A stretch of DNA of 64,000 nt from an uncultured Chloroflexota bacterium (GTDB taxonomy: Bacteria > Chloroflexota > Anaerolineae > Caldilineales > Caldilineaceae): contig CAIOHJ010000103.1 in assembly GCA_903858085.1 (NCBI GenBank), positions 21,598-85,597 of the forward strand, read 5' to 3'. The notes below the pieces were generated by a model. The model saw nothing but the letters and a program-made list of their open reading frames with translations, was not told the origin of the DNA and searched no databases. Made by a program: the position numbers and the translations under genes. Positions 9,161-42,713 of this stretch are shown piece by piece. The number at the start of each line of letters is the position of its first letter. The first letter of the stretch is position 1.

Positions 9161-10615
9161 TCAGGCCCACCGGCTGTGCCAGGGTGTCGCCTGTTCGTAG
9201 GCGTGTGCGGCGCGCAGCAGCGTGGCCTCACCCAGGTGCGGGCCCATCAGCTGCAGCCCGATCGGGAGCCCCTGCGCGTCGAACCCGCAGGGCACGCTGA
9301 TCCCACACATCCCAGCCAGGTTGAGGGGAATGGTGAAGAGATCGCTCAGGTACATGGCCAGCGGATCATCCACCTTTTCGCCGAGACGGAAGGCTGTCGT
9401 CGGGGCCACCGGGCTGGCGATCAGATCGACCTGGGTGAAGGCAGATTCGAAGTCTTGTTTGATCAGCGTACGAACCTGCTGGGCTTTGAGGTAGTAGGCG
9501 TCGTAGTAGCCGGCGCTGAGGACGTAGGTGCCCAGCATGATCCGGCGTTTGACCTCGGCACCGAAGCCCTGCCCGCGCGAGTCGCGGTAGTTGTCGAGGA
9601 TGTTGGCAGAGTCGGCGCTGAACCCATAGCGCACGCCGTCGAACCGTGCCAGGTTGGCGCTGGCCTCGGCGGTTGCCACCAGATAGTAGACCGGCAGGGC
9701 CTTGTCGGTGTTGGGCAGGGAGATGCGCACGACTTCTGCGCCGAGTCCTGCCAGCACGTCGATGGCGGCCTGTACTGCGGCGTTGACCTCGGGCTGCAGC
9801 CCCTCGACAAAGTACTCGTCGGGCAGCCCGATCCGAAGCCCGCGCACATCCTCGCTCAACAACTGGGAATAGGGGGGCACTGGCGCCGGCATCGTCGTGC
9901 TGTCGTGGGGATCCTGGCCGGCGATGACGCCCAGCAGCAGTGCTGCGTCGCGCACATCCTTCGCCAGCACCCCGATCTGGTCCAGGCTGCTGCCGTACGC
10001 GACCAGACCATAGCGGCTGACCCGCCCGTAGGATGGCTTGAGGCCGACGACACCGCAGTAGGAGGCAGGCAGGCGGACGCTGCCGCCGGTATCGCTGCCC
10101 AGCGCAGCCATGGCCATCTGGGCAGCCACTGCTGCGCCGGAGCCGCCACTGCTGCCACCAGGCACCCGTGCCAGATCCCAAGGGTTGTGGGTCGGGAAAT
10201 AGCCGCTGTTCTCGGTGCTTGACCCCATAGCAAACTCGTCGGTGTTGGTCTTGCCCAAGAGGACCATCCCCGCTGCGGCCAGCCGATGCACCGCAGTCGC
10301 CGTGTAGGGGGGGATAAAGTGCTCGAGGATGCGGCTTCCACAGGTTGTGCGCACCCCCTCTGTACAGAGCACATCCTTGACCGCCAGGGGGATGCCCAGC
10401 AGCGGGGCCGTTTCACCGCGGCTGCGGCGGTCGTCTGCTGCAGCCGCCTGCGCCAGTGCCAGCTCAGCGGTGACTGTCAGATAGGCGTTGACCTGGCCGT
10501 CGACCTGGGCGATCCGATCCAACAGCGACTGGGTCAGCTCGACCGCACTGAAATCACCGCGCTGCAGGGCGGCCCACGCGGCATGGAGGGTGAGTTCGTA
10601 CAGGGCTTTGCTCAT
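9161..10615 (-). CDS. gatA: Asp/Glu-tRNA(Asn/Gln) amidotransferase subunit A
   Basis: [42 protein letters not shown]. Confidence 0.97.
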
Positions 10616-10616
10616 A

Positions 10617-10907
10617 TCACTCCTCGAAGACCGCGCGCACGCGAAAAAAACCGTCCTCGCGGTCAGGTGCATTGGCGGTTGCCAGCTCATTGGGCAGAGA
10701 AGGTGCCGGCAGATCCTCGGCCCATACATTCACCAGGGGCAGCACATAGGGGGTCGGCGCGACGCAGCTGGTCTCTACCTGCTGCAGACGTTCGGCATAC
10801 TCCAGGATCGCCGACAGCTGGCCCGCATACAAGGCCAGTTCCTGCTCGCTCAGACGCAGTTTGGCGAGTTCGGCCACATGGCGCACTTCCTCGCTTGTCA
10901 GGTGCAT
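10617..10907 (-). CDS. gatC: Asp/Glu-tRNA(Asn/Gln) amidotransferase subunit C
   Basis: [12 protein letters not shown]...[15 protein letters not shown]; strong GGGAGG SD; directly upstream of gatA. Confidence 0.95.
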
Positions 10908-10953
10908 CGCGCTCCTCCCTACAAAATCGCTCCAGACAATCCCAACAAATAAC

Positions 10954-10985
10954 AAAAAACGTCGTGGGAACAGACTCCACGACGT
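10954..10985 (-). terminator. Intrinsic terminator inside the gatCA leader
   Basis: Minus strand ACGTCGTGG/CCACGACGT 9-bp stem followed by TTTTTTGTTATTT, about 45 nt before the gatC start. Confidence 0.8.
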
Positions 10986-11103
10986 GTAACTTGCTCCTCC
11001 CAGCTGATGGAGCTGCGGAGTTGCAAGAAAGACCAACTGCGCAATTGTACTCTGCTCATCATTTCCAAAATTGCTGTACACGCCACAGCTCAGCCTGGAG
11101 TCG

Positions 11104-11132
11104 AGTATACGGGTTTGGCGTTCACCTGTCAA
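11104..11132 (-). promoter_or_regulatory. Sigma70-type promoter for gatCA
   Basis: TTGACA-N17-TATACT on the minus strand. Confidence 0.85.
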
Positions 11133-11167
11133 ACTTTCACCGCGGCAGGCTCAGCAATTTTCTCTGA

Positions 11168-11210
11168 AAACAGGGGGGAAACAAGGGGGAAACAGGGGGG
11201 AAACGGGGGG
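11168..11210 (+). repeat. ~11-bp G-rich tandem repeat x4 (AAACAGGGGGG-like); potential G-quadruplex
   Basis: G6-N6-G5-N5-G6-N4-G6 read directly. Confidence 0.8.
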
Positions 11211-11217
11211 CGGTCTG

Positions 11218-11226
11218 TGGTACACT
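11218..11226 (+). promoter_or_regulatory. Extended -10 element of the FNT gene
   Basis: TG-G-TACACT about 40 nt upstream of the SD-preceded ATG. Confidence 0.55.
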
Positions 11227-11264
11227 GAGAGATGTACAGATTTGTTCACCCACAGGAGTCCATC

Positions 11265-12146
11265 ATGTCCAACGAACTACAGATCGATTCACTGTTGCCG
11301 GCTGAAATGGCCGCCAAGGCCGAAGCGGTCGGCGTCAAAAAGGCGAATCTGGACGGGGCCAGCATGTTTGCGCTGGCTGTGCTGGCGGGCGCGTTTATTG
11401 CGTTGGGTGCGATCTTTGCCACGACCGTCGGGGCCGGCACGTTTGGCTCGACGTGGGCCGACGGCAACGCCACCACCAGCTGGCCGACCGGCCTGCAGCG
11501 GCTGCTCAGCGGGCTGGTTTTCAGCCTGGGGCTGATCCTGGTCGTCGTCGGTGGGGCCGAACTTTTTACAGGCAACAACCTGATTGTGATGGCATGGGCG
11601 AACCGCAAGGTGAGCACCGCACAGCTCGCCCGCAGCTGGGGTGTGGTCTTCGCCGGCAACTTTGTGGGGGCCCTCGCGACCGCGGTGCTGATGCTCTGGA
11701 GCCGCCAGTATGAATTCGCCGGCGGCCAGATCGGCCTGCAGGCGCTGACGATCGCCCAGCACAAGGCGACCCTGGCTTTTGGACAGGCGGTTGCACTCGG
11801 CATCCTGTGCAACGCCCTGGTCTGTCTGGCTGTCTGGCTGACCTTCAGCGCACGCACGACGATCGACAAAATCGCTGCAGTCGTGCCGCCGATCACGGCC
11901 TTTGTGGCGGCTGGCTTCGAACACAATGTCGCCAACATGTATTTCATCCCAATGGGGATTTTGATCAAAGAGACCGCTTCGCCGGCATTCTGGGCGGCGA
12001 TCGGCAAAACGCCCGCCGATTTTGCCGCTTTGAACCTGGCCAATTTTCTGGTCAACAACCTGATCCCGGTCACCCTCGGCAATCTGATCGGCGGAGCTCT
12101 GCTGGTTGGAGGGGTCTACTGGTTTATCTATCTGCGCAAGCGTTGA
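11265..12146 (+). CDS. Formate/nitrite transporter (FNT; FocA/FdhC/NirC family)
   Basis: LAGAFIALG, AELFTGN, GILCNALVCLAVW, GFEHNVANM, VTLGNLIGG; AGGAG SD. Confidence 0.93.
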   Translation: MSNELQIDSLLPAEMAAKAEAVGVKKANLDGASMFALAVLAGAFIALGAIFATTVGAGTFGSTWADGNATTSWPTGLQRLLSGLVFSLGLILVVVGGAELFTGNNLIVMAWANRKVSTAQLARSWGVVFAGNFVGALATAVLMLWSRQYEFAGGQIGLQALTIAQHKATLAFGQAVALGILCNALVCLAVWLTFSARTTIDKIAAVVPPITAFVAAGFEHNVANMYFIPMGILIKETASPAFWAAIGKTPADFAALNLANFLVNNLIPVTLGNLIGGALLVGGVYWFIYLRKR

Positions 12147-20669: not shown

Positions 20670-22230
20670 CGGTTGGCTCCTCGTCTTGTGCAAGGTCGGT
20701 GAACTGCACCACCCACACGGTGCGGGTGGTGCCGGTGATTCGGGCGCTGTGTGACTGTGCCAGCCCGCAGACCCAGAGCAGCCGTCCGTCGCTGCGGTCC
20801 ACAAGAACAGGCCAGCCGGGGCGCAGGGCCGGGGCAATTTTGGCGTCGGTAAACAGTTTGCCGAGTGTTTTGTGCCGTCCTCCCATGCCCAGCGGGTCGA
20901 TGCGTTGGCCGGGCACTGCGGCACAGAGCACAGGCTCCTGGATCTGGTCGGCATCCAAGAAAAGCTGCCAGCGTTGCCCAGAAGGCTGCCTGACACACTT
21001 CAGCGCTGCCCGTTCCACCAGCCTGCAGGAGAGCTGCCAGCCGCCCACAGCCGTTTTTCCGGTGCGTGGCAGCGGCTCTGCCAGCTGGCGGTCGGCTGGC
21101 GCCAGCCAGGGGCCGGGCGGGGCCAGCGGAAGCTCCCCGTGGAGGTGCAGGGAGAGACAAAGCCCCTGCCCTGGCAGCGCCACCACACTCCAGGCCAGCG
21201 GGCCAGCCAGCGGGTGGGGGCCTGAGGTGCGGCTGGCCCGGCGCAGCGCTGCTGCCAGCGTCTCCAGCCGGTCGGCGCCGACCTCGCGCAGATCGCGGGC
21301 GAGCCGGTTCACCGCCAGCCGCAGCACCCCCTGCTGGCTGGCAGGGTCCAGCTGCTGCAGGCCAGCCAGGTCGAGCAGCAGGTACCGGGCGGAGGAGCGC
21401 TGTGGCTGGCGCATAAGCCGTTCGAGGGTCTCTACATCCAGCCTATGCAGCCGGTCCGCCTCTGTCGCCAGGACGCGCGCCGTGCGCGCCAGCGTGGCCA
21501 CGATCGAAGGGGCCTGCTGCTGCAGCAGCGGCAGGAGTTGCTGGCGAATCCAGTTGCGGCTGAAGCGTTCGTCCTGGTTACTTTCATCCTCGTCCCAGAC
21601 AAGCTGCTGCTGGCGGGCGTAGGCAACGATGCTGGCACGGGTCGCTTCCAGCAGAGGGCGGAGAAGGTGTACCGGCCGTTCGGCCAGATTGGGGTCTGTC
21701 AGGAGGGTCAGCGGGCGCATGGCAGCCAGCCCCTGGACCCCGCTGCCTTGCAGCAGCCGGAGCAGAACGGTCTCGGCCTGGTCGCCGGCATGGTGGGCCA
21801 CGGCGACCAGAGCGGTTTGTGGCGAGGGCGCCAGGTCGTTGGCCAACGCGCACAGAAAGCGGTAGCGCGCCCGGCGGGCCGCCGCCTCCAGCCCGGACGG
21901 GTCTGCCCGGAGGGCTGCGCTGTCCAGGCGAATGCTGTGCCAGGGCAACCCCAGCTGCTCGGCCAGCTGGTGCACCTGGTGGGCCGTTGTGGCCGAAGAG
22001 GGGCGCAGGGCATGGTCGACGTGGGCCACATGGAGCAGCAGCTGGCGGGTGGGAGCCAACTGGTGCAGCAGATGGAGCAACACCACGCTGTCGACGCCGC
22101 CGCTGACCCCCACAACCAGCGGTTGGGGGCCGTGGCTGCTGGGTGGCAACAGGCGCTGGCAGGCCTGCCAGAGCAGACTTGCCAGCGGATGCTCCCATCG
22201 AGGTGGACGAACCGGTGCGCAATGTGCCAT
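20635..22230 (-). CDS. tilS: tRNA(Ile)-lysidine synthetase
   Basis: PP-loop VSGGVDS, EAAARRARY, AHHAGDQAETVL, RPLL, DESN...RNWIR, TilS_C region. Confidence 0.93.
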   Translation of the reverse strand: MAHCAPVRPPRWEHPLASLLWQACQRLLPPSSHGPQPLVVGVSGGVDSVVLLHLLHQLAPTRQLLLHVAHVDHALRPSSATTAHQVHQLAEQLGLPWHSIRLDSAALRADPSGLEAAARRARYRFLCALANDLAPSPQTALVAVAHHAGDQAETVLLRLLQGSGVQGLAAMRPLTLLTDPNLAERPVHLLRPLLEATRASIVAYARQQQLVWDEDESNQDERFSRNWIRQQLLPLLQQQAPSIVATLARTARVLATEADRLHRLDVETLERLMRQPQRSSARYLLLDLAGLQQLDPASQQGVLRLAVNRLARDLREVGADRLETLAAALRRASRTSGPHPLAGPLAWSVVALPGQGLCLSLHLHGELPLAPPGPWLAPADRQLAEPLPRTGKTAVGGWQLSCRLVERAALKCVRQPSGQRWQLFLDADQIQEPVLCAAVPGQRIDPLGMGGRHKTLGKLFTDAKIAPALRPGWPVLVDRSDGRLLWVCGLAQSHSARITGTTRTVWVVQFTDLAQDEEPTDERPDRTLDPS

Positions 22231-42429: not shown

Positions 42430-42576
42430 GCAAAATTTGTTTTTGGGTGATGAACAGCGTGCAGAAACGTGTCTAGCAGAAAACTGTCACAATCGATTCT
42501 ATTCAGATTTGCCTGGGCACATCTTCTCCTGTTGGCGGTCAGCGGGAAACGGCCAGCGCCTTGCTGGCTGTCCCCG

Positions 42577-42630
42577 CTATCGACACAAGCACGTCAGTTG
42601 TGATGCCTTCTGGCAAAGCTGTTTCTGCAT
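42577..42630 (-). CDS. Putative Cys-containing leader peptide MQKQLCQKASQLTCLCR
   Basis: 17 codons with 3 Cys, between the promoter and the leader terminator; no strong SD. Confidence 0.4.
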   Translation of the reverse strand: MQKQLCQKASQLTCLCR

Positions 42631-42685
42631 TTTCAGTCAATTTCTGAACTTCAGCGATTTGAAAATAATTCAAATGGCAGCTTCC

Positions 42686-42713
42686 AGTATAGCCAGAGCG
42701 CTGCTGCTGTCAA
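42686..42713 (-). promoter_or_regulatory. Sigma70-type promoter of the sulfur-carrier operon
   Basis: TTGACA-N16-TATACT on the minus strand. Confidence 0.75.

Follow-up and report, generated by a model that had tools for sequence, protein, structure and literature searches.

The 64,000-nucleotide stretch of DNA considered here (hereafter, the window; positions 21,598 to 85,597 of the forward strand of contig CAIOHJ010000103.1, GenBank assembly GCA_903858085.1) belongs to an uncultured Chloroflexota bacterium of the family Caldilineaceae, and on its minus strand the genes gatC and gatA are preceded by a leader of about 190 nucleotides (nt) carrying a strong intrinsic terminator. The question raised by this locus is what kind of regulatory element the leader represents. 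An interpretation made from the letters of the DNA (hereafter, the sequence-only reading) proposed a candidate new riboswitch, in which an upstream segment pairs with the 5' arm of the terminator. Comparison with other genomes of the family points to a different answer: the leader is probably a decayed remnant of an attenuator found upstream of gatC in the Caldilineaceae, of which it keeps the terminator, rather than a ligand-binding riboswitch. The intact form of this attenuator is most likely controlled by ribosomes translating a leader peptide, and probably senses the supply of asparaginyl-tRNA (Asn-tRNA).

All elements of the leader described in the sequence-only reading are present in the window. 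A sigma-70-type promoter at 11104..11132 of the minus strand, with TTGACA (11132-11127) and TATACT (11109-11104) separated by 17 nt, matches 11 of 12 positions and is the sole promoter-like site in the 1-kb interval 10500-11500; since only 0.1 such sites are expected from shuffled sequences, it is above chance. The same promoter type, TTGACA-17-TATACT, precedes gatC leaders across the Caldilineaceae, and none of 36 promoter positions differs between the window's own genome (G000, 4.5 Mb) and its sister genome G011. The position of the promoter suggests that transcription of the minus strand starts near 11097, from where the leader extends to the gatC start codon (ATG) at 10907. The terminator (10951..10985, minus strand) consists of ACGUCGUGG (10985-10977), a loop, and CCACGACGU (10967-10959) followed by UUUUUUGUU, forming a G+C-rich stem of 9 base pairs (bp) with a 9-nt loop, a U6GUU tail, and a folding energy of -15.0 kcal/mol; a simple terminator scanner with a loop limit of 8 nt passes over it for that reason alone. 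This hairpin with its T-run is unique in the G000 genome, is identical in G011, and corresponds to the second hairpin (D:E) of the family attenuator described below. It cannot belong to an upstream gene, since the neighbour on the opposite side is a divergent formate/nitrite transporter gene, which starts at 11265 on the plus strand.

The pairing which gave the leader its riboswitch-like appearance also exists. The segment CUGUGGCGUGUA (11088-11077), the 5' strand of the proposed antiterminator, can form 12 bp, including four G-U pairs, with UACACGUCGUGG (10977..10988, minus strand), which comprises the 5' arm of the terminator and its flank and is the counterpart of segment D in the family switch; the predicted energy of this helix is -11.5 kcal/mol. 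Its significance is marginal: when the upstream leader was dinucleotide-shuffled 2000 times, 5.3% of the resulting sequences paired with the terminator arm at least as well. In the transcript preceding synthesis of the 3' arm of the terminator, the minimum-energy fold includes the 12-bp helix (-41.9 kcal/mol versus -40.8 kcal/mol without it, a margin of 1.1 kcal/mol), and its pair probability is 0.57-0.92, while in the full-length leader at equilibrium the terminator has a probability of about 1 and the helix of about 0. Folding of the whole leader was no better than that of shuffled sequences (z = -1.48). The bases 11088-11077 are also part of a 5' hairpin (11073..11089, minus strand; GCUGUG-GCGUG-UACAGC, 6 bp, -7.7 kcal/mol). 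The stem of this hairpin is kept in G011 and in G004, the next relative (GCUGUG-GCAUA-CACAGC in G004), while the loop bases that extend the complementarity to the terminator flank are found only in G000 and G011. The alternative UGUAC/GUACA pairing (11080-11076 with 11050-11046) and the two inner hairpins, AGUUG/CAACU (11038-11034 with 11023-11019) and CAGCU/AGCUG (11015-11011 with 11005-11001; CUCC-CAGCU/AGCUG-GGAG in the extended form), can likewise be drawn as the sequence-only reading had them; both hairpins lie in the middle of the leader (10991..11068, minus strand), which is lineage-specific sequence left by deletions.

Affiliation of the leader with known RNA families was considered for T-boxes, since gatC is an appropriate gene context and a terminator is present. 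An Asn-specific T-box has been reported upstream of gatCAB in Clostridium acetobutylicum; T-boxes bind uncharged tRNA directly and contain no leader open reading frame (ORF). The gatC leaders of Caldilineaceae resemble this system in the regulated genes, in the terminator/antiterminator output, and likely in the signal, charging of tRNA(Asn), but differ from it in having an ORF and no match to the T-box model or core. A search of the whole window against Rfam 15 at the gathering score yielded zero matches, and at E <= 10 the region 10850-11300 produced only chance-level hits (E >= 2, to unrelated lncRNA or ylbH models, on either strand). Nothing credible, the T-box model RF00230 included, was found in 27 loci from relatives. 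The T-box core TGGNACC is absent from both strands of 10900-11140, and neither Stem I nor a specifier architecture was found in the window's leader. A T-box or another known tRNA-sensing leader, such as one of the Asn T-box type, is thus virtually impossible here, and ykkC, glnA, and other curated Rfam families were rejected for want of a credible match in the window or the relatives' loci. The sequence-only reading, which had set aside T-box and ykkC-type RNAs and named Rfam as a check, was right on both families.

A new riboswitch would consist of a multi-branch aptamer closed by the helix 11088-11077/10988-10977 and stabilised against the terminator by a metabolite or a tRNA. Such a proposal agrees with the layout of the leader, where the closing helix shares its 3' strand with the 5' arm of the terminator and encloses three hairpins, and with the lack of an explanation by known families. 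The distribution of the leader points the other way. No further copies were found in the G000 genome, and the entire leader is present in only one of 60 relatives, G011, with 96% identity. The part in common with G004 comprises the first 75 nt and the terminator, the middle being much longer in G004, and the terminator hairpin alone is common to a dozen other genomes of the same genus, being the only genus-wide part of the leader. When metagenome and genome contigs in public collections were scanned with an 18-nt junction word, there was one true match, the record of G011 itself; seven other matches showed no resemblance to the leader and were dismissed as chance occurrences. The putative sensor region is thus restricted to two near-identical genomes.

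The availability of G011 allowed the rate of change in the leader to be compared with that in the adjacent genes. The two leaders differ at 11 of 189 positions (5.8%), while third codon positions differ by 6.2% in gatC and 7.4% in gatA, and first and second codon positions of gatA by 2.1% and 0.8%, respectively. Of the 11 changes, seven are in the 78-nt middle (9% of its positions) and four past the terminator, while the initial 29 nt and the terminator itself are unchanged. Since the middle differs at least as much as third codon positions do, the would-be aptamer evolves as fast as silent sites. Of the changes affecting its stems, one breaks a pair (A-U to A-C) and two are accommodated only as G-U. 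The region between the strands of the closing helix, where a conserved and covarying aptamer would be expected in a riboswitch, is thus confined to G000 and G011, and no conservation or covariation of a sensor region of this type, by which the sequence-only reading was prepared to be judged, was found in relatives. Taking into account also the poor folding score and the origin of the region as a deletion product of a translated leader, we consider a new riboswitch very unlikely; in 141 of 151 Caldilineaceae genomes its place is taken by a switch with a translated ORF.

This switch was recognised in gatC upstream regions extracted from more than 50 genomes representing about 25 genera. The element defined by R1, a covariance model of the family leader, occurs once per genome in 141 of 151 Caldilineaceae, including 79 of 80 high-quality genomes, and always adjoins gatC directly at its 5' side. 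A second R1 match in G009 (contig C297) proved to be a contig-end duplicate of the same gatC leader and not another regulated gene. The relatives score 60-122 bits, while the window scores 25.3 bits, nearly all of which comes from the second hairpin, and G000 and G011 reach an E-value of only about 0.008.

The intact leader begins with an ORF of 24-41 codons (median 29) with an ATG start, encoding an Ala-rich, Asn-enriched peptide which ends in ...A-A-x-x-V-[S/P/L]-R-stop. Segment A, GCGUGUCCCGG, is made up of the final codons of this ORF and is nearly invariant at the RNA level. The stop codon lies 0-6 nt past A in most leaders, and segment B begins 13-28 nt past A. Hairpin 1 is formed by CGCCGUGG, a loop, and CCACGGCG, where B comprises the 5' arm and the start of the loop and C is the 3' arm; hairpin 2, CG[U/C]CGUGG, loop, CCACG[A/G]CG, has segments D and E as its arms. 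Of 55 leaders, 54 have a U-run after hairpin 2 and 21 have one after hairpin 1. Owing to the near-identical stems of the two hairpins, the RNA can adopt either an A:B + C:D fold or a B:C + D:E fold, the latter containing the terminator. The CGCCGUGG/CCACGGCG hairpin was also considered as a dispersed repeat or a generic terminator, which was rejected since the hairpin with its T-run is unique in G000. In one leader (L102, genome G025), the terminator hairpin GCGUGGAAACGUCCACGACGUUUUU has been amplified to about six tandem copies, located downstream of hairpin 2 and before gatC.

The alternative folds are supported by covariation. RNAalifold recovered both hairpins unprompted, and in a 36-sequence alignment the B:C + D:E fold has 97.7% of cells paired, with nine pairs changed on both sides, while the C:D pairing has 99.7% of cells paired. 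In 15 sequences, D and E changed jointly from C-G to U-A, whereas the G in C was retained and forms a G-U pair with D, which fits a strand having two partners. The A:B pairing shows U-A to C-G swaps; because it reaches into the variable loop of hairpin 1, it was scored sequence by sequence. Duplexes of A with its own B have a mean energy of -15.15 kcal/mol, compared to -11.98 kcal/mol for A with the B of another lineage; the mean for own duplexes was reached in none of 5000 permutations. Matched variant classes include GUGUCC/GGACAC, GUGCCC/GGGCAC, GUGCUC/GAGCAC, GCGUCC/GGACGC, GCUGUCC/GGACAGC, and GUGUUGCGG/CCGCAGCAC. Judged from the alignments, the number of independent double changes makes the case for a family RNA switch convincing. 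The relatives thus possess mutually exclusive, covarying pairings that include an intrinsic terminator, and a strongly covarying, single-copy gatC leader has been defined in about 93% of Caldilineaceae genomes.

The relatives also have the second hallmark of a leader attenuator, a short ORF conserved in frame just past the promoter. Its coding nature was analysed in 47 distinct leaders, namely those passing motif, ATG, and length filters. In all 47 of these filtered leaders, an ATG-initiated ORF is present in the frame of segment A, while stop codons interrupt one of the remaining frames in 39 leaders and the other in 35. The ATG is located 6-10 nt past the -10 box in about 19 leaders, as in leaderless genes. 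Upstream of A, conservation has a 3-nt period, with 1.03, 0.94, and 0.45 bits at codon positions 1, 2, and 3, respectively. The period disappears inside A, where all three codon positions are conserved, a signature of constraint on the RNA. Asn makes up 6.9% of residues in the leader peptides versus 2.3% in the background, a 3-fold enrichment second only to that of Ala. Asn codons occur in 38 leaders; the last one is 11-22 codons ahead of the stop in 35 of these and is never closer than 11, which is far enough for a ribosome at this codon to leave A uncovered.

The following model could be proposed for the intact leader. A ribosome reaching the stop codon would sit on A and not on B, so that the B:C + D:E form could arise and transcription would terminate. 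If the ribosome is instead delayed further upstream, which a shortage of Asn-tRNA(Asn) would most plausibly bring about at an Asn codon, A would stay free; A:B would form first and C:D next, the terminator would be blocked, and gatCA would be read through. Read-through would also be the default of an untranslated leader. In this scheme, the signal sensed would be the supply of Asn-tRNA(Asn), an assignment that we make with moderate confidence from codon content and gene inventories. Asparaginyl-tRNA synthetase and glutaminyl-tRNA synthetase (GlnRS), both above curated cut-offs, coexist with GatC, GatA, and GatB in Caldilineaceae genomes. Deinococcus and Thermus have the same gene set, and GatCAB there makes asparagine on its tRNA. 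Glutamine (Gln) as the sensed amino acid was rejected, since GlnRS is present and Gln is depleted in the leader peptides. If the model is true, the tRNA-dependent asparagine pathway of Caldilineaceae is controlled by the ribosome itself. In genomes of the same genus as G000, GlnRS is encoded by a frame of about 800 aa with a C-terminal GatB/YqeY-like domain (positions 306-480 of the gatB model; contigs C251 and C197 in G000, C282 in G008, and other genomes of the genus), resembling the Deinococcus-type GlnRS.

No Rfam family was found for the family leader, and literature searches on gatCAB attenuation and on Chloroflexi leader peptides turned up nothing relevant; it is a well-supported member of the leader-peptide attenuator class, of a known kind but apparently undescribed so far. 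Like trpL, hisL, pheL, thrL, leuL, and ilvL of Enterobacteria, it combines a short translated ORF, mutually exclusive pairings, and an intrinsic terminator upstream of genes for aminoacyl-tRNA or amino-acid supply, with the position of the ribosome presumed to select the fold. It differs from the trp-type four-segment scheme in having five segments, A-E, with two hairpins of near-identical stems, and in the predicted untranslated default, which is read-through and not termination. In contrast to the enterobacterial leaders, it has 0-4 Asn codons as candidate control codons and no tandem run, and its ORF is often leaderless and Ala-rich; segments A, B, and C and the end of the ORF are missing from the window's copy. 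The family leader could serve as a clean system for asking how few control codons an attenuator needs.

How the window's copy arose can be seen by alignment with G004, the nearest genome in which the five segments are all retained, if with a degenerate A:B pairing (-9.2 kcal/mol), and which has an R1 score of 72.8 bits. In G000, the ORF body, segment A, hairpin 1, and the spacer have been lost through several deletions. What is left in G000 and G011 is the promoter, the 6-bp 5' hairpin, a non-conserved filler, and the terminator, with A, B, and C gone and the only ORF crossing the terminator, so that the organisation of a leader attenuator is no longer found. The hairpin at 11039-11017, which R1 aligned with hairpin 1, was rejected as its remnant since its 3' arm cannot pair with D; a better alignment is obtained with sequence near the 5' end of the G004 leader, ahead of and around the start codon of the ORF there. 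A gain of the asparagine synthetase AsnB does not explain the loss of the sensor, as AsnB is patchy and occurs also in genomes with intact leaders. The switch-like architecture noted in the sequence-only reading thus appears to be sound as regards descent from a true terminator/antiterminator switch, but the helix proposed there is absent in G004 and loses at equilibrium. The leader of G000 and G011 would most likely act as a largely unconditional dampener of gatCA transcription, and some read-through might occur in G000 via the weak pairing of the 5' segment with the terminator arm or via ribosomes that cross the terminator. The best reading of these genomes is that asparagine-responsive control has been lost. 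A false riboswitch candidate is thereby removed, and a regulatory leader has probably been caught in the course of decay, with its terminator kept and its sensor deleted.

The ORF that crosses the terminator (47 codons, MMSRVQLRSWSF...GAIL*, 10919..11062, minus strand) ends with a UAG that abuts and overlaps the gatC Shine-Dalgarno sequence GGGAGGAG (10912..10919, minus strand; read from the sequence). It contains zero Asn codons and three CAA (Gln) codons, and its own Shine-Dalgarno sequence is weak (GGA). The frame is open in G011 too, with about six non-synonymous and two synonymous changes, a ratio which gives no sign of selection on the peptide. Its layout resembles that of the pyrBI attenuator of E. 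coli, whose leader ORF is translated through the terminator: the 47-codon ORF, too, extends across the terminator almost to the structural gene, and closely coupled ribosomes on it could block the hairpin. Unlike pyrBI, the window's leader has no U-rich pause sites and no link to nucleotide pools, and translation of the ORF is putative. The pyrBI-like layout looks like a by-product of the deletion that removed the ancestral stop codon.

These features should be weighed against the possibility that a simple switch has re-evolved in G000 and G011, based on the new antiterminator 11088-11077/10988-10977, on pyrBI-like translation through the terminator, or on both; in the pyrBI-like variant, ribosomes on the 47-codon ORF would suppress termination, and gatCA output would track how well translation keeps up with transcription. 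The 12-bp pairing does exist and enters the minimum-energy fold before the 3' arm of the terminator is made. In G004, the same strands can form only 7 bp, four of them G-U (read from the sequence), and the complementarity was created by three loop substitutions relative to G004 together with the new deletion junction. All 11 differences between G000 and G011 are located outside the 5' segment and the terminator, and the ORF, open in both genomes, ends exactly at the gatC Shine-Dalgarno sequence. However, about 5% of shuffled leaders pair as well, the full-length RNA favours the terminator almost completely, and only two near-identical genomes carry the arrangement. For the translational variant, the Shine-Dalgarno sequence is weak and the changes are mostly non-synonymous, and stalling of a ribosome further upstream would promote termination, the opposite of what an amino-acid sensor requires. 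On balance, we regard a re-evolved switch as unlikely. A more elaborate version, in which the leader of G000 and G011 is newly evolved and a new closing helix around a small multi-branch fold places the inherited terminator under the control of a ligand, a protein, or translation coupling, appears decidedly improbable; if true, it would represent a recent swap of one attenuation mechanism for another at the same terminator.

Several observations weigh against the interpretation of the window's leader as a remnant of an Asn-sensing attenuator, or against parts of it. The 11 changes between G000 and G011 avoid both the 5' 29 nt and the 40-nt terminator, for which the chance can be estimated as (121/190)^11, or about 0.007; this leaves room for a functional interplay of the 5' segment and the terminator in G000. 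Nine of the 47 leader peptides contain no Asn, most have one or two, and none has a tandem run, so that sensing of Asn is not a general feature and may be the wrong assignment. The pairing model does not account for the invariant Ala-Ala codons that precede A, and a nascent-peptide effect may be involved. In leaders L046 and L056, both of one genus, the ORF runs 18 nt past A: UGG replaces UGA after A, and the ORF ends about 7 nt before hairpin 1. A terminating ribosome would there cover B, which under the model means constitutive read-through; this lineage may have altered or lost its regulation. Finally, the shuffle and permutation controls applied here ignore phylogenetic relatedness.

Weaker matches of R1 outside the Caldilineaceae are not located at gatC; the same design was found upstream of genes for the ATPase subunits of ATP-binding cassette (ABC) transporters in other families of Anaerolineae. 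In loci L138-L145 (e.g., L139 63-157 and L142 1501-1592), a short ORF is preceded by a Shine-Dalgarno sequence and often ends in ...LPCRSAP...; its 3' end is complementary to both the 5' arm and the loop of the first of two hairpins. Both hairpins have identical GGCCGUGGG/CCCACGGCC stems (GCCGUGG/CCACGGC) and are followed by U-runs. Antibiotic-responsive leader-peptide attenuators of ABC genes are known, for example bmrB-bmrCD of Bacillus subtilis, and the ABC-transporter ATPase genes at these loci are likewise preceded by a leader-peptide module, which is possibly antibiotic-responsive. Its downstream genes and peptides differ from those of the gatC leader, and both homology and convergence are possible. 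As far as can be judged from its layout, this looks like a general, class-wide module for ribosome-operated attenuation in Anaerolineae, and its occurrence before both gatC and ABC-transporter genes points to a reusable attenuator.

In the window, gatC (10617..10907, minus strand, 96 aa; Pfam GatC, E = 1.1e-18) is followed by gatA (9161..10615, minus strand, 484 aa; Pfam Amidase, E = 7e-164), while the gatB gene of G000 is located on a separate contig, C8, away from gatC-gatA. Next on the minus strand are a class I/II aminotransferase gene (9062-7695; Pfam Aminotran_1_2) and a gene for a 791-aa argininosuccinate-lyase-like fusion (7659-5284; Pfam Lyase_1 and ASL_C2), in which the argininosuccinate-lyase domains begin at residue 339, leaving an N-terminal extension of about 330 aa without assignment. 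The formate/nitrite transporter gene is preceded, in the divergent intergenic region, by four plus-strand copies of the tandem repeat AAACAGGGGGG (11168-11210), the number of which varies among close relatives, with about two copies in G011 and one in G004. Another leader in the window, that of a ThiS-MoeZ-CysM operon (42430-42700, minus strand), has a TTGACA-17-TATACT promoter and a short ORF ending in Cys-Leu-Cys-Arg-stop before a terminator.

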